54,099 nucleotides of DNA from a virus (Duplodnaviria > Caudoviricetes), in IMG/VR virus record IMGVR_UViG_3300037502_000458, positions 1-54,099 of that record; one strand, written 5' to 3'. The notes beneath the pieces were generated by a model. The model searched no databases, was not told the DNA's origin, and was given only the letters and a program-made list of their open reading frames with translations. A program made the translations under genes and the position numbers. Positions 35,385 to 46,189 of this stretch are shown in pieces. Every line of letters starts with the position of its first letter. Within the stretch, counting starts at the first letter, position 1.

Positions 35385-38300
35385 TTATTTCCTGTTCACG
35401 GCGGCAAGGCCACCTTTCTTTTTGCCAGTAAGTCGCTTCATGGCCTCTTCGTACATCTTAATCTCATCAACGTACTGAGGGTCCACTTTCTGCCTTGCGC
35501 CTACCGACTTGAGCATATTAAACGGATCAACTTTCTTCGCCAGTTCAGGATGTTCTCTAAACCATTGAGAAAAATCTGGGAAAGCTAGTTCGTAAGGGAT
35601 TGGGTACTTTGATCTACCCATCAATTGACCGGGTATGTCGTATTCATAAGTTGGATGCCGAGACAGCGTAAGCTCGCCTTGCGGCCTCATCTGACCAACT
35701 GAGTATCCCGTAACCCCTGTCTCCAAATTCCTTAGCCCCGGCTCAGTAATCGCGGTTTGAACTATGCTTCCTTGAAACGGGAATCCCACCGCTTTGGCAG
35801 TAGTTGGCTTTTCCAGAACTTCAGAAATGCGCTTCCGAAGATTTGGGTTCATCTGGGCTTGCAACAACAAATCGATGGGGTCCTCAAATCCAACAAACTG
35901 CGGGTACTTGTTTGCCTTGTCACCCTCTCGCACCATCTTGTTCAAGATTTCCATCTTGTCGGCTGGCAACTTGTCCGGCTTGAGCACAGAAATCAAAGCA
36001 TCTAGATTGTGCATGGCATAACGAGAACTCTCAGGCGACATCTTCATGTATTGCCCAAGAATCTTGTCAGTCTGATACTTCTCTGCCATCTCATCAACCA
36101 GATTCTTAATGCCTTGAGCCGCACCTTTGCTTGACGCCCAATAGCTTTCAGGCTGAGCAGTCCCATAACTAGGCCCGCCATACAACTCAACAGGAGTTTC
36201 AGGCGTTACGTCACCAACCTGCATCAGACGTTTGCCAGCCCTCGTAGGCTCATACAAAGAACCCGGAGACTTGACTTGCCCCATCGTGGGGTCTCCCGGA
36301 ACTCCTACAATTACCGATCCTAGTTGCTTCTCGTAGTCAACCGTAGGAAGCGGCTTATCCTCAATCGTGCTCTCCACGATCATCGGAGTGCGCTGTTCCA
36401 TTTCGTAAACAGCACGAGACTTGCCTTCAGGATTTACAGAGAAAGCAGGATCAGGTCTCACAAACCCCGGCTGCGTTTGCTCGGCGATTCGTTGAGCAAT
36501 ACTTTCAATCTCTTGCTTTGATCGCGGAGCAGCACGACCAGCAGCAGCGGCCTCCTCTGCGTATTTGCTCTTAGCCGCCCTAGCAGCAGCAGGAAGGTTC
36601 TTCAATCCGGCCAACCCTCCCTTAGCCATCTGCACTTCATTGGCTAACTTCAGGGCTTGCATGAATGCCTTGTCTTCTGGCATTCCTTGTTCGATCAGTC
36701 TGGCTTTGATGGTGTCGGCGTTAGATACCAACCCACCTTCTGCTTTTTTAACCACTCCCAGTTTGTCTAAAAGTTCATCACCTTCTTCTGCTTGTATCTT
36801 TTCCCACCGCCGTTTCAACTGATTAAACGGCGTTGGCCCAACAGTTTCAAACTCTTGTTCCGTAATATAGCGATCTTTTGATGACAAATTTTGAGATCTA
36901 AGCCAATTTCTAAAATCCCCATCAATGTTTCGGTCAGTCAAAATGTCAATCATTCCAGCATTTCGTATATCACCAATACCAATCCATTCTTGGCTCTTTA
37001 CGAAGTCTTGAACGAAAGGCAAGTAATCTTCTTTAGGCGCTTGGTTGCCCTTGCCTTTGATTTGAATAATCTGCGAAGGAGCCTCTCCAAATCGACCAAC
37101 TAACTCCTTCTGTAAGGCCTGATTATAAACTTCATGATCTTCTGATTTATAAGGAGGCTTTAAGCCTAGTCTTGTTTCAATATCTCGACCTAATTGCAAA
37201 TATTCTTCTTTGGGCATTTTTGCGCGAATAGTATTCCAATCCCATTGACTGGGCCTCACCTCAATCGTTACATGAGGCTCACCCTTTGAATCTCTGAGAG
37301 AAAAGATTTGCGTGTTGCCTTCCAGCACATCTGGGCAGTAGCTCCCAACACAGTGCCCCATCGTCTTGCCTTCATAAGACAACGCTTCTTCCGTCTTCTT
37401 CGCGTCAGTCTTATTGTGCAGTTCTAGCCACTTGTAGCCCTCTGGATAGTCTTTAACAACCGGCAACCCCTCCTGCTGCTGTATCGCGGCTCTAGCGGCT
37501 TCCTTGGCCTTCTCTTGGTCGTATTCGTAAGTCCGCCTGACCGCTTGCTCAATTGAAACTTTGTTTAACTGTTCTGGACGGATACGGCCCGTTTGCAAGT
37601 CTTCACGGAGAACGTCAACAACGTGATCAAATCCCAAGTCGCCATACGTCGTAGTGTAAAGAGGAGTGTTTGGATCAAGTTTCATTACCCAAGGATTTTT
37701 TTGAGCTAAATCCAAGTTGATCCTATCCATCATCCCATGACTTTTCCACCACTCGTTTTGCAAAGTTTCATACTCGTTGTCTTGAAGTATGATGGCTTTG
37801 TCACCTATCGGGGTTTTTTGATTCAAAACCTCCATTTCTTTATCGCTGTAAATACCGCTGTTCCTTAGCTTTTCATCAAACCTTCTAGCAATTTCCGATT
37901 GCTTATCTTTGAATCTGCGTTCTGCTTCTTGGGCAAACGGCAAAGATTCTATTGTCCGCTGAATGTCGCCAGCAGTTCGTGATGCAATCGCCTCATCTGA
38001 CAGGTTTTCCCACCTTTTGGCTAAGTCTGATTGTCCCATGCCACTAGCGGGAAACCCAGCCATGTGTCGTTGCACCCTTGTTGACTTTTCTGGAACAAGA
38101 GCCTCTTCTGCCAAATCTGTTTTATGAGTAACACCTTCTTCTGCCAACTTTCTTACCGGGTCTTCCGGCGTACCCATTTCTTTCTTGACATAATTGACAA
38201 GATTCCGGTCAATCCAATTGTCTAACGCAGCTCGCTGCCTTTCTTGACCCAACATCCGCTCAACCGTTTGGCGGCTTTCAGGAGTAAGCGTTGGATCTTT

Positions 38301-38966
38301 CAATAACTCTTCGTGTCTAGGAATTCGTTGAGCAGGCGTTTCTCCAGCAATCGTTTCCGACTTTAAGGGCTTTACCGATTGCTCAACTGTTCTTTCAATC
38401 CAGTTGCCGCCTTTTCCCTTAACAACCTGACTGGCGGTGTTCTGCGTCATCCCCTGAAGGATCTCAGCAGGCAACCCACCCTTTTCCATCGTGCTGTAGA
38501 CCTGCTTCTCGACAGCCTTCTCTAGACGGCCCCCGGCGGCCTGTAAAGCCCTCTGAGCCATGGCATTAACGTCTGCCGCCTTTGCACCTGCTTGAGCCAT
38601 TGCAGGACCCGCTAGGATGTTTGCAGGGGAGGTGAAGGCTGTAGGCTGCATCGGGAAGGCTTGCCCTATGGTTCCTAATGCTTCAGCGGCGGTGTCAAAG
38701 TATCGTTTGCCCGCTTCCGTTTCTGGGATACGAAATCTCTTGGCTTGGAACTCCGGTCCCATCTTGCCCATGAACTGGGCAGGAACACCGTGTACCAACG
38801 CACCAAAAAGAGAAAGACCTGCATCCGCAAGTCCTTTGGCTTTATCTAGCTTCGTCTCGTCAGGACGAAAGATGGATCGAACATCACCGCCAAGAATAGG
38901 TTCTTCAACCGGAGGGATGTCTGATAAGGGTTGGGTCATTGGCAGACCCCCGAGGATTCTTTCCAT
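35385..38966 (-). CDS. large multidomain protein with PcfJ-like domain
   Basis: EGKTMGHCVGSY...IFSLRD..GEPHVTIEV...IIQIKGKGN; modules separated by AEGG/AKGG motifs; AGGAGG SD. Confidence 0.7.
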   Translation of the reverse strand: MERILGGLPMTQPLSDIPPVEEPILGGDVRSIFRPDETKLDKAKGLADAGLSLFGALVHGVPAQFMGKMGPEFQAKRFRIPETEAGKRYFDTAAEALGTIGQAFPMQPTAFTSPANILAGPAMAQAGAKAADVNAMAQRALQAAGGRLEKAVEKQVYSTMEKGGLPAEILQGMTQNTASQVVKGKGGNWIERTVEQSVKPLKSETIAGETPAQRIPRHEELLKDPTLTPESRQTVERMLGQERQRAALDNWIDRNLVNYVKKEMGTPEDPVRKLAEEGVTHKTDLAEEALVPEKSTRVQRHMAGFPASGMGQSDLAKRWENLSDEAIASRTAGDIQRTIESLPFAQEAERRFKDKQSEIARRFDEKLRNSGIYSDKEMEVLNQKTPIGDKAIILQDNEYETLQNEWWKSHGMMDRINLDLAQKNPWVMKLDPNTPLYTTTYGDLGFDHVVDVLREDLQTGRIRPEQLNKVSIEQAVRRTYEYDQEKAKEAARAAIQQQEGLPVVKDYPEGYKWLELHNKTDAKKTEEALSYEGKTMGHCVGSYCPDVLEGNTQIFSLRDSKGEPHVTIEVRPSQWDWNTIRAKMPKEEYLQLGRDIETRLGLKPPYKSEDHEVYNQALQKELVGRFGEAPSQIIQIKGKGNQAPKEDYLPFVQDFVKSQEWIGIGDIRNAGMIDILTDRNIDGDFRNWLRSQNLSSKDRYITEQEFETVGPTPFNQLKRRWEKIQAEEGDELLDKLGVVKKAEGGLVSNADTIKARLIEQGMPEDKAFMQALKLANEVQMAKGGLAGLKNLPAAARAAKSKYAEEAAAAGRAAPRSKQEIESIAQRIAEQTQPGFVRPDPAFSVNPEGKSRAVYEMEQRTPMIVESTIEDKPLPTVDYEKQLGSVIVGVPGDPTMGQVKSPGSLYEPTRAGKRLMQVGDVTPETPVELYGGPSYGTAQPESYWASSKGAAQGIKNLVDEMAEKYQTDKILGQYMKMSPESSRYAMHNLDALISVLKPDKLPADKMEILNKMVREGDKANKYPQFVGFEDPIDLLLQAQMNPNLRKRISEVLEKPTTAKAVGFPFQGSIVQTAITEPGLRNLETGVTGYSVGQMRPQGELTLSRHPTYEYDIPGQLMGRSKYPIPYELAFPDFSQWFREHPELAKKVDPFNMLKSVGARQKVDPQYVDEIKMYEEAMKRLTGKKKGGLAAVNRK

Positions 38967-38999
38967 ACTTCCTCCTTACCCTGTGAATGATATACGGTA

Positions 39000-39191
39000 T
39001 TACTCTCTATTCCTAGTGAATACGTTAGTACACATTACACAAACACGCCTCCCATCTAACTCGGACAAGATCCGCTTTTTACCCGGCCACATTCCCCCGG
39101 TACTAAGCAGACGACAAAATGTATCTTCACCTGTCCAAATGTGAGCCGCAGTGCTTTTTTTCTTTGGATTGTAGTAGTAGTAAGTTGTCAT
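39000..39191 (-). CDS. small His/Cys protein, possible Zn-binding (63 aa, MTTYYYYNP...)
   Basis: AHIW..DTFC...VCVMC; ATG at 39191 preferred over the longer ORF call. Confidence 0.55.
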   Translation of the reverse strand: MTTYYYYNPKKKSTAAHIWTGEDTFCRLLSTGGMWPGKKRILSELDGRRVCVMCTNVFTRNRE

Positions 39192-39492
39192 TGGTACGCC
39201 AATCTTTGGGTTATAGCTCGCCTTGGGTGGATGGCCGTTTCTTTTCCAAAAAGAAGGGCTTATCTCACCTCTCCCAAACCCATCATCCTGTGAAAGGTTC
39301 CAGAGCACCCATGAGGCTGCGATTCGTTCGGGTCCGCTTCTAACTACCACCCTTTGAGCGGCTCGCCTTTCTCAGTTCCTCGCAGACAGACTGAACGGCT
39401 TGATTGTTCGTACCAAAAGCCGGTGTACCCTCACGTGTTCGCCCATTCAGGCGCAGACTTTTACGTGCGTGTCACGAGTTCCGGCGCACCAA
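39191..39492 (-). ncRNA. unassigned ~300-nt highly structured RNA
   Basis: 12-bp closing helix TTGGTGCGCCGG/TTGGCGTACCAA, at least six internal helices, possible GGGTGG/CCACCC pseudoknot. Confidence 0.6.
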
Positions 39493-39498
39493 AACAAA

Positions 39499-39643
39499 AA
39501 CCCTTAGGTCGGAAACGGGCTAAGGGCTTGGTTTGCCGCTGTACAGGTGGTCAGAACACCATTCTGTACGCTTTGACTAAGCCCGCCCCCTACCTAAGGG
39601 TTCGGATTCGCAGTTCTGTGCTCTATCGGATTACCAGCCCGAC
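39499..39643 (-). ncRNA. C4-like antisense RNA with upstream target hairpin
   Basis: Long stem AACCCTTAGGT..CGGGCT / TAGCCCG..ACCTAAGGGTT plus U-tract; GTTCTG and ACCAAGCCC complementary to upstream CAGAAC and GGGCTGGT. Confidence 0.65.
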
Positions 39644-39653
39644 AGTGATTAGA

Positions 39654-39681
39654 ATTCTATCCACCTGATTATCTCTGTCAA
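39654..39681 (-). promoter_or_regulatory. sigma70 promoter
   Basis: TTGACA-16 nt-TAGAAT just downstream of the terL stop. Confidence 0.7.
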
Positions 39682-39695
39682 TACGCAACATTAAG

Positions 39696-41123
39696 TTAGA
39701 TTGAGTATGGATTCTCTCGGGTTCTTCCAGAGTCAACATAATCCTCTTCATCCCAATCGTCTCGGGGGGGAGGATCGATCTCTAGCCAACCAGAGTCTCT
39801 GAGATACCTCAAGGCTTGCGTACAAGAATCGACATAATCGTCCCTCGTTGACTCAGGAAACGAACAGATCTGGCTGACAAACCCTTCCGCCCAGTCTTTG
39901 ACGTAGCCCCTTCTTCTGTCGCTCTCAGGAATCCATACCCGCCCTCTGGCAATAATGTTGGAGACGATGTTCAGCCTCTGCATCTTGTCAGCCTTACCGG
40001 GGTTATATGCCCTGACAGGAAGGTGTGCCCTCTGTAAGTCTTGAATCAACGAGATCCCCGCGCTCTTGTCTTCTACGAGGATCAGATCTACCCGCTTCTT
40101 ATCCTTCCCTTCACCGAAGATCGTCTCGTACTCCTCTATGACTTTAGGACGCAGATCGGGGTACTGAAGGTGCTCATTCCAGCAATCGATCACCATTACG
40201 CTCATCGGGCCATCTAAGGGCTTGAACACCCCAAAGGTGATGCTGGCAGTAGGGTCGTTGTGAGTCTTCTCTGTATTGGCACAGTCGTAGGATTGGACGA
40301 TGTACTCAAACCGTGGAAACTCTTTACCAGCAGGCCACAACTTGAACATCTCGCGTTTAACGATTCCCCCTTCTTCCGGGTCTATGATCTCTGCATGAAT
40401 CTCCTGACGGCCAATCGTCGTCCCTTCGTATTGAAGGATCTGACGCTTGAAGTTCTCAGATAGATTGTTGATGTTGGCATACGTTGAGGCTCGGGAGATG
40501 ACAACATCCTCCCCCTCGCGAGATACCAACTCGATAATCAGGTCCTTAGGTTTAGGTGTTGTAGTGCAGATGATCTTGGTACGCTTTCCAAGACGCACAG
40601 ACAGCATGATCTGATCCCAAGCCTCTTGGATGTAATCCCAAGCCGCCAACTCGTCACATAAGGCTCCATGCCACTGAGGGCCACGGAAACGCTCTGGCTC
40701 GCTGGCAGGAATGCCTTTAATAAGGCTTCCATTGACCAATCTAAGCTCGTGAAGGGCCTTGTTATAGTCGGCTATCAGAATCTGCGGGATGACGCTCAGA
40801 AGGCCGCTATCGCCCTCAAAGACCGTTCCTCGAATATCAGAACTGGTTGGAGCCGCTACGAGCCACCGGGTCTTAGGTTCAGTCCAAGCCCACCAACCTA
40901 ACTGCTCCGACCCCATTTTCGATTTCCCAGCTCCCCTGCCCCCAAGTGCCAGCCAAATAGACCACCAATCTCCCGGAGGAAGAATCTGATGCTTATGAGC
41001 TGTAGACAACCAATTAGCCCTCCATGCGAAGGCTGCTTGATCCTCTGGAGACAGTAGTTCGAACTTCCTTCGTGTCTCCGGGTCTTTCAATAGATCAAGG
41101 ATGTCATCCACGTTGAAACGCAC
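39696..41123 (-). CDS. terL: terminase large subunit
   Basis: Walker A GGRGAGKS, Walker B ALCDELAAW, TTTPKP, nuclease motifs SYD, VEDKSAG, DDYVDS. Confidence 0.95.
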   Translation of the reverse strand: MRFNVDDILDLLKDPETRRKFELLSPEDQAAFAWRANWLSTAHKHQILPPGDWWSIWLALGGRGAGKSKMGSEQLGWWAWTEPKTRWLVAAPTSSDIRGTVFEGDSGLLSVIPQILIADYNKALHELRLVNGSLIKGIPASEPERFRGPQWHGALCDELAAWDYIQEAWDQIMLSVRLGKRTKIICTTTPKPKDLIIELVSREGEDVVISRASTYANINNLSENFKRQILQYEGTTIGRQEIHAEIIDPEEGGIVKREMFKLWPAGKEFPRFEYIVQSYDCANTEKTHNDPTASITFGVFKPLDGPMSVMVIDCWNEHLQYPDLRPKVIEEYETIFGEGKDKKRVDLILVEDKSAGISLIQDLQRAHLPVRAYNPGKADKMQRLNIVSNIIARGRVWIPESDRRRGYVKDWAEGFVSQICSFPESTRDDYVDSCTQALRYLRDSGWLEIDPPPRDDWDEEDYVDSGRTRENPYSI

Positions 41124-41523
41124 TCATCGGGATCAAGATACAAGGCTCGATGTCTTGCGGGTCGTTCCTGTCGGATCTGCCACCTAAGACTAGTTTCTTC
41201 GACCGCCCTTTCGTCCACCAGATCCCGTCAGTCAGCTTCACGATAAGAATGAGGGGGATGTTCATGGAGTCAGCAAAAGTTCCCCCAATGACCCACTTGT
41301 GAGCGGAGATCATGTATCCGCCCATCTGATCTATTTGGGAGTAGCTGTAATTCCGACACTTGATCTCTGCAAGAGCAACGATGTCCGCACCTTTGGTGAG
41401 GCAGTAATCGACGTTGTGCTTGATGGGGAGCTTGTCGAAGTGACACTTCCACCTTTTGGACATCTCAAGAGCCACGGCAGATTCGTTCTGGAGATCTTGG
41501 GAGGACTCATACAAGGGCCTCAT
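41104..41523 (-). CDS. PD-(D/E)XK-family nuclease
   Basis: VDY...AEIKCR motif; C-terminal GGRSDRNDPQDIEP. Confidence 0.7.
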   Translation of the reverse strand: MRPLYESSQDLQNESAVALEMSKRWKCHFDKLPIKHNVDYCLTKGADIVALAEIKCRNYSYSQIDQMGGYMISAHKWVIGGTFADSMNIPLILIVKLTDGIWWTKGRSKKLVLGGRSDRNDPQDIEPCILIPMSAFQRG

Positions 41524-41828
41524 ATCTTCTTACAAGGCCACAGTGTCCGTAGGAGGTTCGTAATCAAGCTATCAGCCGAGTAATGTCTATTGGCAGGGTT
41601 CCTAGTCAGGTGACCCTTAACAAGGTCTCTGACCTGCCCTGTAGTGATATTAGCGGGGGGGCAGTGATTTACACCCTCTCCTGTGTCTGATACTCCCACT
41701 ACATACCCCAAGGCCATAGATCGATCTACGATGCTGTCTGCATCCATCTTCGCCAAAAGATCATTGCCGGTGAAGAACTCAGCGTGAGCGGTAGAACATA
41801 CTAACAACAACGCAATTGCCAGTCTCAT
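41520..41828 (-). CDS. Rap1a/Tai-family exported protein
   Basis: Signal peptide (AHA), TGNDLL, GYVVGVSD, CPP..T.GQ..D.V, WPC. Confidence 0.75.
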   Translation of the reverse strand: MRLAIALLLVCSTAHAEFFTGNDLLAKMDADSIVDRSMALGYVVGVSDTGEGVNHCPPANITTGQVRDLVKGHLTRNPANRHYSADSLITNLLRTLWPCKKI

Positions 41829-42466: not shown

Positions 42467-42639
42467 CGCTCGTACTCCACCAATACCTCAGAATGCGTCT
42501 GGATCTTCTCCGCTAACGCCTTCGCAAGAATCTTCAGGAACCTTACTTCGTCTTCCAGTGCCTCAACTCGATTGCTAAGTTCCGTGAACTTTTTTGCATC
42601 GTGCATCTGCTGAAAGCCTTCTACGATTCCTGATCTCAT
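42463..42639 (-). CDS. small coiled-coil hypothetical protein (58 aa)
   Basis: Read manually; overlaps the terS stop and next start. Confidence 0.6.
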   Translation of the reverse strand: MRSGIVEGFQQMHDAKKFTELSNRVEALEDEVRFLKILAKALAEKIQTHSEVLVEYER

Positions 42640-43172
42640 CACTCCTCCAGTTGTCTACGGGTTTCCAAGTTCGTCAATACAGCATCAAATAGCTGTCGGG
42701 ACTCTATTTTGATAGGAGCACCGTCTTCAGCACCTGTCAAAGCTACACGGTCTCCGTACCTCTTGGGATTCCATTTGGCGAGCATCTTCAAGGTGATCTC
42801 AGCTCGGGCTTTAACTAACTGCACATAGCCCGGATCAATCTTGTTACCCCCTTCGGACATAATCCGCTCAGGCTCGTCGTACATCTCAAGGTATGCACGT
42901 TCGGCCATAGCGTCTTGACCGACCTCTCTAGCACGCGCGATTGCTCCCGAAAGACCTGTACCGGCCTCTCCGGCAGCATCATCCTTAGCCATCCATTCAT
43001 AGATTTTTTGCCATGCAGGCATATGGGGATCACGGCAGATCTGGCGTAAAGGTTCGCCATTACTAAGGCGTTCGCAGATCTCTGCTGCTAGCTCTGGAGT
43101 GTATTTAGAAGCTCTTCCAGTGCCTTTTGGTGCTAAGCCTACAGGTTTCGGGTTTTCTGCCTTTTTCGGCAT
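42639..43172 (-). CDS. terS: terminase small subunit (Sf6-like)
   Basis: GRASKYTPELAAEICERLSNGEPLRQIC..MP...EW, PKRYGD; GGAG SD supports ATG at 43172. Confidence 0.85.
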   Translation of the reverse strand: MPKKAENPKPVGLAPKGTGRASKYTPELAAEICERLSNGEPLRQICRDPHMPAWQKIYEWMAKDDAAGEAGTGLSGAIARAREVGQDAMAERAYLEMYDEPERIMSEGGNKIDPGYVQLVKARAEITLKMLAKWNPKRYGDRVALTGAEDGAPIKIESRQLFDAVLTNLETRRQLEE

Positions 43173-43184
43173 ATTCATCTCCGT

Positions 43185-43522
43185 TAATGGTTGTTGGTGG
43201 CATCCCAACAGCGTCGAGCCACTGAGTCGAACAGTAGCCCCACCACTAGCCCGTGAACGCCTTGTGCTTGGTTGCACAGCCACCAACACGGAAGGATCTT
43301 CCTTTTGTACACCTGATCGTGGCTGGCCATGTCACAGCCCTTTGGACTCGATCTGATGCTGGGCGTCCCCCAGAAGATCCATGCGTGTTGCTCCCCGTCT
43401 TTCCGGGGTGTCAGCCGGGTCACGCCTCGGAGGAGACACTACTCAGCGCCCCGGTTGCAGGTGTTCATCCACCTCCTGCTGGGAGCAGGTCTGGGGAGAA
43501 GCAAGCCACCAGAACCAGCAGG
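43185..43522 (-). ncRNA. structured leader / sRNA cluster upstream of terS
   Basis: Series of helices: CCTGCTGG/CCAGCAGG, CCGGG/CCCGG, CCCCG-GAAAGA-CGGGG, CAACACG..GGATCTTC/GAAGATCC..CGTGTTG, TGTTGGTGGC/GCCACCAACA; TACAAT -10 at 43526-43531. Confidence 0.6.
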
Positions 43523-45236: not shown

Positions 45237-45524
45237 CTAGGGGGCATTCCCGAGCAACTGCCTAACCTCAGTCAGCAAATCTGCTTCCGTGAACCCCCAG
45301 TGCTTCACGAATCCCTTGGTTCCCAAACCATGAACTCCGGTGTTGCCACGGTGATGTTCGGGGCAGAGCGGTAAGACATAGTAGTTGCTGGCCCTCTTGC
45401 CCATGCCTGTACCGGAGCGGGGGTGGTGCAGTTCTGCTGGAGTTCCGATATAGCCCATCCTCCGGCAGACGATGCAGCCAAGTTCTGCTACCCGGCTCAT
45501 GTGACGCTTCTCGTCTTTGGTCAA
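45237..45524 (-). CDS. Ref-like (recombination enhancement) HNH-type nuclease
   Basis: LGCIVC...AELHH...LPLCPEHHRG..GVH. Confidence 0.8.
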   Translation of the reverse strand: MTKDEKRHMSRVAELGCIVCRRMGYIGTPAELHHPRSGTGMGKRASNYYVLPLCPEHHRGNTGVHGLGTKGFVKHWGFTEADLLTEVRQLLGNAP

Positions 45525-46189
45525 AACAACATCTCCTGACCTGCTTTCACCGCCCATCGGTTAATAGGATTCTTCCCGTTAACTCTCTTGGCAAGGCACC
45601 CGGCGCAATAAGGCTTGATGGCATGGTTCACCGCTACGTTTGTGCTGTCGGCACTTGCAAGCGGCCAACCGTCTTGTCCGAGCATCCTCAGACCATGCAC
45701 CCAAGGAAGCCTGCCAAACGTGCTCAGAGCATTGAACGCCTCATCCATACGTCTGGCCCACCGATCACTACCAACCTGCCAGTAATCGCCAGCTGATCCA
45801 AAACAGACCCTTCCCCAGTCGTCACATAGCTCCAGAAGATAGTCAATCGACAGACCTAGATGCCAAACCGGAATGCCCAATGACTTTGGGAAAGGCCAAG
45901 TCTTAACCATCTTCCGCTGCTGCTCTACAGGGCCATCAATCACATCAGGCACTACCGCCCAGTGCGGAGGATTCAATAACGGATCCACCCATTCATAAAA
46001 GCCTTCCAAATCAAATGGGACACCTCTGGTCTTGCAACTAAAGGCTCCATTGTCAAACATGATGCTTTGTCCGATCTCCAAACACCGGCTTAGAGAATCG
46101 GGTCGAGCATAACTCACACAGAAGTGCTGACCAACCATTGACTCTAACGCCGACTTTGGGGTGATTGGCGTACCGTGATAGTGAATCAT
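45521..46189 (-). CDS. TGT/DpdA-like transglycosylase-fold protein
   Basis: MFDNGAFS, VPDVI, IPVWH, VCFGS, VHGLR, SADST in TGT-family order. Confidence 0.6.
   Translation of the reverse strand: MIHYHGTPITPKSALESMVGQHFCVSYARPDSLSRCLEIGQSIMFDNGAFSCKTRGVPFDLEGFYEWVDPLLNPPHWAVVPDVIDGPVEQQRKMVKTWPFPKSLGIPVWHLGLSIDYLLELCDDWGRVCFGSAGDYWQVGSDRWARRMDEAFNALSTFGRLPWVHGLRMLGQDGWPLASADSTNVAVNHAIKPYCAGCLAKRVNGKNPINRWAVKAGQEMLF

Follow-up and report, generated by a model that had tools for sequence, protein, structure and literature searches.

What does this phage genome encode on its minus strand, in the interval from the large terminase gene to the gene for a 1193-aa protein, and what might the encoded element do? 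The window, by which we mean the whole 54,099-nt stretch that was analyzed (IMG/VR record IMGVR_UViG_3300037502_000458), was previously examined from its sequence alone. That preliminary description proposed a self-contained unit at this place, made of a promoter, a short RNA with a complementary "target" loop and a terminator, and then a large structured non-coding RNA. All the features that it listed are present on the minus strand where it placed them, and the comparisons reported below support the unit as a whole. The layout is a sigma-70-type promoter followed by module 1 (about 150 nt, 39650-39495) and module 2 (39495-39219), and all features given below lie on the same minus strand. A hypervariable loop pair, a pseudoknot joining 39385-39380 to 39322-39317, the modularity of the cassette and a small downstream gene were all absent from the preliminary description. 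The genome order is lambdoid, with an O-like initiator, a DnaB-like helicase, RusA, and then the small and large terminase genes. The neighbors of the cassette, which it had been suggested to record, are the terminase, a PcfJ-like protein and the portal. The terminase reading frame is intact and matches relatives over residues 1-475.

Promoter, fold and terminator of module 1

The promoter TTGACA-16-TAGAAT (39654..39681) agrees with the consensus at 11 of 12 positions, and a promoter scan found no other promoter-like site within 38500-40200 of the window. Its position and score are kept in relatives. A score of at least 9/12 was obtained for 41 of 56 upstream regions versus 10 of 420 control windows, and the end of the -10 hexamer is separated by 17 nt from an invariant UGGU in 38 of the 56 distinct upstream regions. 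The first hairpin would have its base at the transcription start, predicted at about 39650-39646. A search for RNA runs containing the stretch returned none; the four runs compared with it were DNA contigs.

Module 1 (39495..39650) is a structured RNA with a predicted intrinsic terminator at its end, as indicated by a covariance model, covariation and folding. The covariance model R1 scores the window copy at 117.7 bits (E 6e-26). In the alignment of 58 distinct sequences 97.2% of the cells pair and compensatory changes are observed in 27 of 39 pairs, a result reached by 0 of 500 shuffles. The predicted fold of 39493-39695 has a z of -4.71, with 0 of 200 shuffles equally good. Homologs with compensatory changes, which the preliminary description had named as the check to make, were found for both modules. 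Exact-pattern matches in human-gut contigs (L133, L137, L139, L151, L153, L158, L162, L164) have neither the hairpins nor the terminator and are unmatched by R1; they were treated as chance or unrelated matches and left out of all counts.

Module 1 comprises two 5′ hairpins and a long hairpin. Hairpin H1 (39623..39645) shows compensatory changes in 7/7 pairs, and its loop carries the invariant UGGU (39636-39633). Hairpin Hk (39610..39621), with a 3-bp stem changed in a compensatory manner at 3/3 pairs and a 6-nt loop CAGAAC (39618-39613), is the "target hairpin" of the preliminary description. The long hairpin (39499..39602; helices 3-9 from fold and covariation) harbors a three-way junction and adopts an identical minimum-energy fold in 7/7 representatives. 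Its apical loop GUUCUG (39557-39552) is the partner of the Hk loop. It also contains the invariant segments GUCAAAGC at 39577-39570 and GCGGCAAACCAAGCC at 39539-39525, the latter including a mini-hairpin GGC-AAACCAA-GCC whose invariant loop ACCA is complementary to the UGGU of H1. As UGGU and ACCA are invariant in 56/56 sequences, covariation is uninformative on their loop-loop pairing.

The base of the long hairpin is the terminator stem. This predicted stem, AACCCUUAGGU/ACCUAAGGGUU, is G+C-rich and directly followed by the U tract U5-G-U4 (39491..39500), the arrangement of an intrinsic terminator. The stem is kept with compensatory changes among the 58 sequences, and a run of at least 4 T follows it in all 58 distinct aligned sequences. 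A simple terminator scanner missed it because its loop far exceeds the limit of 8 set in that program. The same hairpin (39602-39499, with U5-G-U4) had been called a C4-like stem with U-tract; the stem and tract stand, whereas membership of the C4 family does not, with no C4-type model matching at E up to 10 and an RNA of about twice the size of C4 and of another architecture.

The invariant unpaired nucleotides of module 1 are concentrated around the three-way junction of the terminator hairpin, where they could form a ligand pocket that sets terminator strength. Loop-loop docking can pre-organize such a junction in riboswitches. That module 1 or 2 is a riboswitch seems improbable to us nonetheless, as no riboswitch family matched, a hypervariable tertiary pair is unlike riboswitch pockets, the cargo consists of variable RNAs and unrelated small genes with no consistent metabolic or transport set, and an unrelated second class of leader occupies the same position.

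The tertiary pair in question is that between the Hk and apical loops. In 49 of 56 sequences the Hk 6-mer is an exact complement of the apical loop, versus 230 of 3080 mismatched pairings, and 39 distinct 6-mers occur among these 56. The 6-mer differs at 33% of sites where the remainder of module 1 differs by less than 2%; its evolution is thus much faster than that of the remaining RNA, which fits the expectation for a specificity determinant. The pair was scored sequence by sequence. Columns of the model-fitted alignment gave 34-53 of 58 paired, because the loop columns are unaligned there. Both partners sit on one molecule, and the sequence cannot tell intramolecular from intermolecular pairing. 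The two loops may form no more than an internal tertiary contact, whose fast change would then be unusual. A search for a second, downstream target of the variable 6-mer returned 4 matches in 34,159 nt, which is below the control rate, at no fixed place, and no second copy lies within 900 nt. Thus, the C4-type scheme of a loop directed against a ribosome site does not apply to the 6-mer.

Sequence conservation runs on beyond the U tract. A semi-conserved segment past the terminator, UUUUGGUGCGCCGG (39481..39494), could base-pair with the invariant junction segment of module 1: at least 6 nt complementary to GCGGCAAACCAAGCC are found past the terminator in 27 of 38 distinct sequences versus 13% of control windows. 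The complementarity is short, imperfect and partly U-rich, and in minimum-energy folds of the extended transcript the alternative pairings vary between relatives.

Module 2 and the small gene that follows it

Module 2, here of "type B", is a structured RNA of about 280 nt (39219..39495) that begins within a few bases of the U tract and lacks a separate promoter-like site in the window. Alignment A3 includes 14 module 2 sequences in about 6 lineages. Within it 94.2% of the cells pair, and 28 of 43 pairs, pseudoknots included, show compensatory changes; 0 of 500 shuffles reach this covariation, and slid controls gave 28-46%. Taken alone, the 302-nt part is thermodynamically unremarkable (z = -1.38, 8 of 100 shuffles equally good). 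The aligned helices are 39453-39449/39444-39440, 39394-39391/39375-39372, 39367-39360/39337-39330 and 39305-39296/39280-39271. Pseudoknot 1, between 39385-39380 and 39322-39317, is 100% paired with 3 of its 6 pairs changed on both sides. Pseudoknot 2, GGGUGG (39352-39347) with CCACCC (39230-39225), had been anticipated in the preliminary description; it is conserved, with one G-C to A-U switch among the lineages observed by eye.

Several inner helices proposed from the window (CGCCU/GGGCG, UCAG/CUGA, GCCGC/GCGGAC and the GAACC/GGUUU arm) are found again in relatives, where they show compensatory changes. The CGGC/GCCG and CACGU/ACGUG helices were supported by eye only, because MAFFT shifts register at these places. 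The UUCUUUU-UGG-AAAAGAA hairpin is present in the window but sits in a window-specific insertion. A 12-bp helix had been proposed to close the RNA end to end. It is present in the window (39492-39481/39202-39191), with its 5′ strand (39481-39492) within the UUUUGGUGCGCCGG segment and its 3′ strand UUGGCGUACCAA at 39191..39202, but it is window-specific: among the 9 relatives tested only 2 reach even 8 pairs, none at the matching place. Nor does the RNA end at 39191 as had been suggested; its conserved part stops near 39219, and 39191 is the A of the start codon of the small gene, on which the 3′ strand of the helix ends. If formed, the helix would mask the start region of this gene.

Could module 2 be what is left of a catalytic RNA, or be related to one, with RNase P, a group I intron and domain I of a group II intron as examples? 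It is large, pseudoknot-rich and modular, and a few of its short motifs look similar to motifs of these RNAs. A resemblance to T-box motifs was also noticed, with no Rfam match. A gene of about 90 aa lies within or ahead of its first hairpin in four loci (L138, L093, L078 and L080), as in intron loops. A catalytic ancestry is very improbable all the same. No intron, RNase P or ribozyme model matched three representatives at E up to 10, or 16 loci at the gathering score. The GUGCG start, previously read as an echo of group II introns, is not conserved, relatives having GUGCU, AUGCG, GAGCC or GUGAG there. No domain V-like hairpin was noticed, no reverse transcriptase was found among the neighboring genes scanned, and no host gene is interrupted, the terminase frame being complete to residue 475.

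The small gene (39000..39191) is real. It has 63 codons and a Cys-rich product, a homolog with 40% identity occupies the same place in L001, L002, L003 and L005, and 9 of 11 strain differences fall on third codon positions. Its product has no Pfam or PHROGs match. The frame is open from a GTG at 39350, and the two strain differences within 39350-39192, at 39312 and 39282, are both third positions of that frame, which might therefore encode a longer, 116-aa form of the protein (39350..39000) overlapping the RNA of about 300 nt. We give this form almost no credence. Between the window and its type B relatives there are 6-10 indels of a length not divisible by three, and no common open frame is shared, so that codon-level conservation of an overlapping frame, which would have spoken against the RNA, was not found. 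The columns of this frame show compensatory base-pair changes, the alignment places an in-frame stop 8 codons ahead of the ATG in the L002 homolog, and the 116-aa product has no family match.

Distribution and modularity of the cassette

Module 1 is found in 8 strong and 1 weak of 80 close-relative loci, whose terminases are 74-80% identical. It occurs as a single copy per genome in the window and in 5/5 long contigs. An exact-pattern scan of one genome per species gave one match, on a 3.2-kb contig. The phages that carry the cassette are thus not common prophages, which argues against a role in lysogenic immunity of the C4 kind.

The cassette occupies two alternative sites, and the terminase genes beside it belong to two different families. 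Many relatives have it 0.5-1.3 kb upstream of the small terminase gene. In the window it lies after the large terminase gene and remote from replication genes, and the site after the hairpin CCCCGGAAAGACGGGG, used in L008, L030 and L090, is empty. tRNA genes are located just upstream of the cassette in L049 and L111. Roles as a packaging RNA or a replication primer, both raised in the preliminary description, are unlikely given this patchy occurrence, the two sites and the distance from replication genes.

The place upstream of the small terminase gene is where a late promoter is expected. The late leader of lambda, with pR', 6S RNA and tR', has a constitutive promoter from which a short, terminated leader RNA is made, ahead of the late genes, and the cassette resembles it in its strong constitutive-type promoter, its early terminator followed by late genes and the lambdoid order of the genome. 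Module 1 might then be the mere leader of a late promoter-terminator pair, with a phage protein antiterminator that is loaded at the promoter and takes polymerase past the terminator to the late genes, and with an RNA structure that is incidental or stabilizing. We consider this unlikely. In the window the cassette follows the large terminase gene and is therefore not the late promoter of this phage, and the terminase genes have no such element upstream. No Q-type antiterminator was recognized among the 27 window proteins scanned, several of which are without a family. Moreover, the cassette is accessory and its structure is conserved at the RNA level, with elaborate covarying tertiary pairs in two leader classes that would be unexpected of an incidental leader.

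The second leader class emerged from the distribution of module 2. We found 102 module 2-type RNAs (types A, B and C), 77 of them with a module 1 on their own strand no more than 1.2 kb away. Eighteen of the remainder were inspected by eye, and 16 directly follow a second, unrelated leader composed of promoter, hairpin and terminator. The other two have the gene of about 90 aa ahead of module 2, and one of them, L078, has a second-class leader further upstream. The 5′ hairpin loop of this class is complementary, over 6-9 nt, to the interior of the terminator hairpin in 22/22 sequences. The downstream cargo varies and comprises structured RNAs as well as small genes that are unrelated. Several such structured RNAs are interchangeable, module 2 being one of them, and in relatives without module 1 it follows a second, unrelated leader class of the same plan. 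The proposal that the gated output is an RNA fits these observations, as module 2-type RNAs sit downstream of a terminator-ended leader.

Known RNAs and a possible mode of action

We searched for known RNAs related to the cassette. In Rfam 15 the window had no match at the gathering score, and the 16 related loci had none besides 2 tRNAs. With E relaxed to 10, only chance-level matches were obtained for 38900-39800 (a frameshift site, a human lncRNA and microRNAs), with one microRNA match in L083 and none in L084. No match to 38950-39720 was found by blastn among 50,697 cultured-phage records. As had been suggested, neither module has an Rfam family. No such RNA is described in the literature surveyed, part of it available as excerpts; module 1 may already be present, with no function assigned, among the 8,495 IMG/VR candidates (unnamed, 29-151 nt) in the supplements of PMC10690425.

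Two phage regulators offer the closest logic. According to the available text of PMC5320573, C4 of P1/P7 is an RNA of about 77 nt with three stem-loops, released by RNase P; the loops pair with a site farther downstream, at the ribosome-binding region, and variable loops give specificity. Like C4, as portrayed there, module 1 is a phage RNA from the same transcript as its presumed target, has its complementary site on the same strand, ahead of the effector (49/56, 39 distinct 6-mers), and carries small loop differences that separate related phages. Unlike C4 in that account, it has about 150 nt, two 5′ hairpins and a three-way-junction hairpin, its own promoter and terminator, and a 6-mer without a downstream target. 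The promoter lies directly ahead of the first hairpin, so RNase P processing of the 5′ end is not required. Cassette phages also differ in not having been found as prophages (one match in a scan of one genome per species).

IsrK of Gifsy-1, as far as the accessible part of PMC4825925 describes it, is a short terminated form that acts on its own read-through form. The likeness lies in one promoter that yields a short terminated RNA and a read-through form in a lambdoid phage. The IsrK short form pairs in trans with the read-through and alters expression, which module 1 may do as well. The read-through of IsrK is a messenger for small genes, whereas here a large structured RNA comes first, and a hypervariable internal loop pair is not reported for IsrK in that part of PMC4825925. 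IsrK has no sequence or model match to module 1.

The cassette also recalls the CI RNA of satellite phage P4 in some respects. This immunity RNA is located in the leader that it controls, acts on transcription termination, and is flanked on its transcript by complementary sites on either side. In contrast, the cassette has no downstream copy of the variable site and shows no sign of a lysogenic setting.

A different possibility is that modules 1 and 2 are stable stand-alone RNAs without a regulatory role, for example parts of an RNA-only or RNA-protein assembly, in which the loops would join dimers or rings and the 6-mer would keep apart the assemblies of co-infecting phages. The hypervariable, non-palindromic complementary loop pair would suit this, as would a 5′ terminal hairpin and a 3′ terminator hairpin for a stable RNA, a location beside terminase genes of two different families, and the tRNA genes upstream in L049 and L111, which are typical of phage RNA gene clusters. 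The packaging RNA of phi29 has two non-palindromic complementary loops that covary among related phages, lies near packaging functions, and assembles by joining molecules head to tail through these loops. Phages of the phi29 type are without a classical terminase, whereas the window phage has a small and a large one, and most close relatives are without module 1. The phi29 RNA did not match 38900-39800 at E up to 10 among the Rfam families, which should include its model. GOLLD, ROOL and OLE are large, elaborately folded RNAs without known function, as are the cassette RNAs, and are linked to phages, lake water and neighboring tRNA genes. They form homo-oligomers through RNA-RNA contacts, as stated in the accessible part of PMC12286853. 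No Rfam match connects the cassette with GOLLD, ROOL or OLE, and module 2 is smaller (about 230-280 nt) and follows a terminator-ended leader. Because most close relatives do without module 1, which has 8 strong and 1 weak matches in 80 loci, and because it uses two sites, it cannot be an essential packaging part, and conservation and complementarity cross the terminator into module 2, which a free-standing RNA would not need. We thus regard such an assembly as rather unlikely.

We tentatively prefer, with limited confidence, to view the locus as a mobile accessory RNA cassette of freshwater lambdoid-like phages, placed beside terminase genes, in which module 1 would be an attenuator and riboregulator similar to C4/CI and IsrK. 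By analogy with C4 and IsrK, the best reading is that the terminated short RNA gates, and probably acts on, its own read-through transcript. The constitutive sigma-70-type promoter would drive module 1, whose 5′ hairpins would dock onto the three-way-junction hairpin via two loop-loop contacts. Most transcripts would stop at the intrinsic terminator, giving an abundant short RNA, while polymerases that read through would produce a long form with the pseudoknotted module 2, then the small gene and downstream late genes. The short form might act in trans on nascent or read-through transcripts of its own promoter, with a regulatory outcome, both via the hypervariable 6-nt loop pair and via pairing of the invariant junction segment with the segment past the terminator. 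The 6-nt pair would then serve as a phage-specific address that blocks cross-talk between co-infecting relatives.

A bolder version, conceivable to us although we do not expect it, is that the short RNA is self-addressed. Its loops would be unable to close intramolecularly and would instead link RNA copies of the same phage or its own nascent transcripts. This would provide RNA-only recognition of self and non-self between competing phages, invented twice, as two unrelated leader classes of the same design, and coupled to exchangeable large structured RNAs.

Phage non-coding RNAs of proven structure are few, and this cassette adds two covariation-supported RNAs outside Rfam. GOLLD and ROOL, also large RNAs of unknown function, recently proved to be surprising molecular assemblies, according to the accessible part of that work. 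Assembled from exchangeable parts, the cassette occurs widely among freshwater phages. Its loop pair, with perfect complementarity and fast change, makes RNA-based specificity among related phages directly testable. Should the short form govern its own read-through, the cassettes would represent compact, orthogonal, natural terminator switches, with 39 addresses among 56 sequences, and such a set would be useful for synthetic gene control.

Genomic setting and relatives of the cassette

The window, estimated to be 96% complete at 54,099 bases of an IMG/VR virus record, carries nearly all of its genes on the minus strand in a lambdoid order. In this order, an O-like initiator, a DnaB-like helicase and RusA are listed ahead of the small (42639-43289) and large (39696-41123) terminases, a PcfJ-like protein of 1193 aa (35385-38966, minus strand) and then the portal. 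The RNA cassette is housed in the 729-base gap between the large terminase and PcfJ-like protein genes. The PcfJ-like domain is short within its protein, versions of which in relatives span ~1000 to 1700 aa. Between the terminase genes, 41520-41828 (minus strand) codes for an immunity protein domain of Rap1a type (Pfam PF18602, E 8e-18). The gene at 45521-46189 (minus strand) matches a phage queuine tRNA-ribosyltransferase family (PHROG 887, E 4e-43), a hint that DNA or tRNA carries a 7-deazaguanine modification.

All the features listed in the preliminary description are present in the window sequence, including the promoter TTGACA-16-TAGAAT at 39681-39654, the sole promoter-like site within 38500-40200. 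The fold of 39695-39493 has a z of -4.71, with none of 200 shuffles as good. The proposed 302-nt closed RNA (39492-39191) has a z of -1.38 and is equalled by 8 of 100 shuffles, so that comparison with relatives was needed to test its reality. Comparison with Rfam 15 at gathering score gives no family match for the window or either module, and across the cassette region only chance-level matches appear at E up to 10. Nothing similar to this region was found in cultured phage genomes, and literature searches yielded no description of such an RNA. A 2023 catalogue (PMC10690425) lists 8,495 candidate RNAs without names, 29-151 nt long and drawn from IMG/VR; module 1 or parts of it may be among them.

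A search with the large terminase yielded 80 loci at 74-80% identity. Likeness to the gap at the DNA level was seen only in five of the related loci (L001-L005) and is limited to the first ~220 and last ~50 bases. A pattern of two invariant motifs from the first part of the gap matched 43 viral, 40 metagenome and 1 genome contig(s). Eight metagenome loci from human gut (L133, L137, L139, L151, L153, L158, L162 and L164) were left out because they have the pattern alone in common, the rest of the RNA being missing, and do not match the covariance model; here the pattern match is probably due to chance. In these contigs, the 23 specified bases lie within an otherwise unrelated conserved element beside a tRNA-like region. 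A scan of 185,579 species, each represented by one genome, matched the pattern only once, which makes a role in lysogenic immunity unlikely.

Module 1 and its variable loop pair

Relatives with compensatory changes were found for both RNAs. Module 1 (39650-39495, minus strand) was aligned with MAFFT (56 distinct sequences) and by model fitting (78 sequences, 58 distinct), and both alignments yield one architecture. Hairpin H1 forms the extreme 5' end. Next comes a small hairpin, Hk, with six loop nucleotides on a stem of 3 bp. The long hairpin opens into a three-way junction bearing an upper hairpin and a mini-hairpin (GGC-AAACCAA-GCC), and is immediately followed by a U tract. In the fitted alignment, which was built on the structure and thus favours it, 97.2% of cells are paired and 27 of 39 pairs show two-sided changes; none of 500 shuffles reaches the real value and slid controls pair at 24-49%. 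The plain MAFFT alignment analyzed with RNAalifold gives compensatory changes in 18 of 30 pairs, and the minimum-energy folds of all seven representatives are identical. Upstream, 41 of 56 distinct regions reach a promoter score of at least 9 out of 12, a level seen in just 10 of 420 control windows. The -10 hexamer ends 17 nt upstream of the invariant UGGU in 38 of the 56 and 16-19 nt upstream of it in 48. Judged from these sequences, the promoter is kept in function and place across relatives, and its conserved spacing indicates that the RNA should start at the base of H1. Two relatives have tRNA genes shortly upstream of module 1 (L049:7590-7663 and L111:5697-5778).

The Hk loop CAGAAC (39618-39613, minus strand) is complementary to GUUCUG in the long hairpin's apical loop (39557-39552, minus strand). 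Perfect Watson-Crick pairing between the two segments extends over at least 6 nt in 49 of 56 sequences, with five others reaching 5 nt and two no more than 4 nt, whereas segments from different sequences reach 6 nt in only 230 of 3080 combinations. The Hk 6-mer exists in 39 distinct forms among the 56. In 28 pairs of sequences less than 2% apart elsewhere (mean 0.5%), it differs at 33% of sites and is unlike in 61% of pairs, a rate comparison that the collapse of identical sequences biases somewhat, not by two orders of magnitude. In the two 4-nt cases (L102:5578-5727 and L148:750-900), the Hk loop is that of one relative and the apical loop that of a different one; either natural recombination or chimeric assembly may have produced them. 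A second loop-loop contact is possible between UGGU in the H1 loop and ACCA in the mini-hairpin loop, both invariant (56/56) and hence devoid of covariation signal.

Module 2 and the adjoining small gene

The sequence past the terminator varies among relatives, the 39 distinct downstream sequences from viral contigs falling into 10 blastn clusters. The window carries a type B module 2 (39495-39219, minus strand), to which 13 relatives from about six lineages can be aligned. A sequence-only alignment has 94.2% of cells paired and two-sided changes in 28 of 43 pairs. None of 500 shuffles reaches the real value; slid controls pair at 28-46%, over which the nested structure has an advantage since RNAalifold derived it from the same alignment. 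The GGGUGG/CCACCC contact noted in the preliminary description holds in every lineage, and a single switch from G-C to A-U was identified by eye. The 12-bp closing helix of that description is found in this form in the window alone: among nine relatives tested, seven have 5-7 pairs, and two have 8 and 13 pairs elsewhere in the sequence. The UUCUUUU hairpin likewise belongs to a window-specific insertion. A further pseudoknot, absent from the preliminary description (39385-39380 with 39322-39317), is 100% paired, with two-sided changes in three of six pairs.

An overlapping reading frame was also considered. Differences between strains at 39312 and 39282 both lie in third codon positions of the frame open from 39350 to 39000, a counter-signal for coding. 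However, relatives carry 6-10 non-triplet indels with respect to the window and share no common open frame, by which the module 2 region is noncoding. A small gene of 63 codons with a Cys-rich product follows (39191-39000, minus strand; start codon 39191-39189). It lacks a recognisable ribosome-binding site and its protein matches no Pfam or PHROGs family; a 40%-identical homologue lies 3' of module 2 in L001, L002, L003 and L005, not in L004. Near-identical strains from four freshwater or drinking-water DNA runs show 11 differences in its 192 bases, 9 at third codon positions, as compared with just 4 in the 302-base RNA.

Distribution, second leader class and proposed mode of working

Module 1 occurs in 8 of the 80 terminase loci, many of which are incomplete, besides a weak match in L046 (25.6 bits). 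The latter (L046:1948-2096, E 0.001), immediately 3' of the large terminase gene, may be a third, divergent leader. One copy per genome was found in five of five long contigs and in the window. Module 1 sits either just after the large terminase gene, in two different terminase families, or 0.5-1.3 kb upstream of the small terminase gene, always in the orientation of the terminase genes. The latter site is empty in the window and marked by the hairpin CCCCGGAAAGACGGGG (43398-43413, minus strand) ahead of the small terminase gene; this hairpin is directly 5' of the cassette in L008, L030 and L090. The packaging RNA put forward in the preliminary description is, if essential, unlikely because the element is patchy among relatives.

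RNAs of the module 2 type are also found where module 1 is missing (type A, 13 loci; type B, six; type C, two full-length). In 16 of 18 such loci inspected, a different leader stands immediately 5' of module 2; it brings its own promoter-like site along with a 5' hairpin and a long hairpin that ends in a U tract. The other two, L078 and L080, have a ~90-aa gene between leader and module 2, L078 with a second-class leader farther upstream; the same gene separates the two modules in L138 and L093. This conserved gene, without assigned function, sits at the first hairpin of module 2 or within it (L138, ~45-335 nt past module 1; L093; L078:4840-5095; L080). The second leader class comprises 32 loci (e.g. 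L010:7430-7558, L013:6815-6945, L073:2850-2983, L041:5960-6097), and is unrelated to module 1 by sequence while retaining its design. In 22 of 22 testable sequences the loop of its 5' hairpin has a perfect complement of 6-9 nt within the terminator hairpin, the pair occurring in 12 covarying variants such as GUAGGAA/UUCCUAC and GUCGUGU/ACACGAC.

The two RNA families and their linkage are demonstrated, and from them we infer a mode of working. The plan is constant: a promoter, a compact RNA ending in a terminator helix, a conserved post-terminator sequence and a promoterless structured RNA. This argues that the terminator would gate module 2 and whatever follows. The semi-conserved segment directly past the U tract, UUUUGGUGCGCCGG in the window, shares at least 6 nt of complementarity with the junction segment GCGGCAAACCAAGCC, which is invariant; this is the case for 27 of 38 distinct sequences, versus 13% of control windows. 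This complementarity suggests that the short form may pair with the long form, paralleling IsrK of Gifsy-1, whose short form pairs with its long form (PMC4825925).

The loops of C4 from P1 and P7 act as a specificity determinant (PMC5320573), and the fast-changing yet matched loop pair of module 1 resembles them. Unlike C4 loops, which pair with a downstream site at a ribosome-binding region, those of module 1 show no such target: the variable 6-mer occurs downstream 4 times in 34,159 nt (0.12 per kb, versus 0.25 per kb for foreign 6-mers). A loop pair that changes fast and is always matched is as expected for a specificity determinant, and could serve as a phage-specific address. The leading alternative is an RNA that stands alone and assembles. 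Our tentative reading, held at somewhat less than even confidence, is that module 1 would act as both attenuator and riboregulator, with a phage-specific address.
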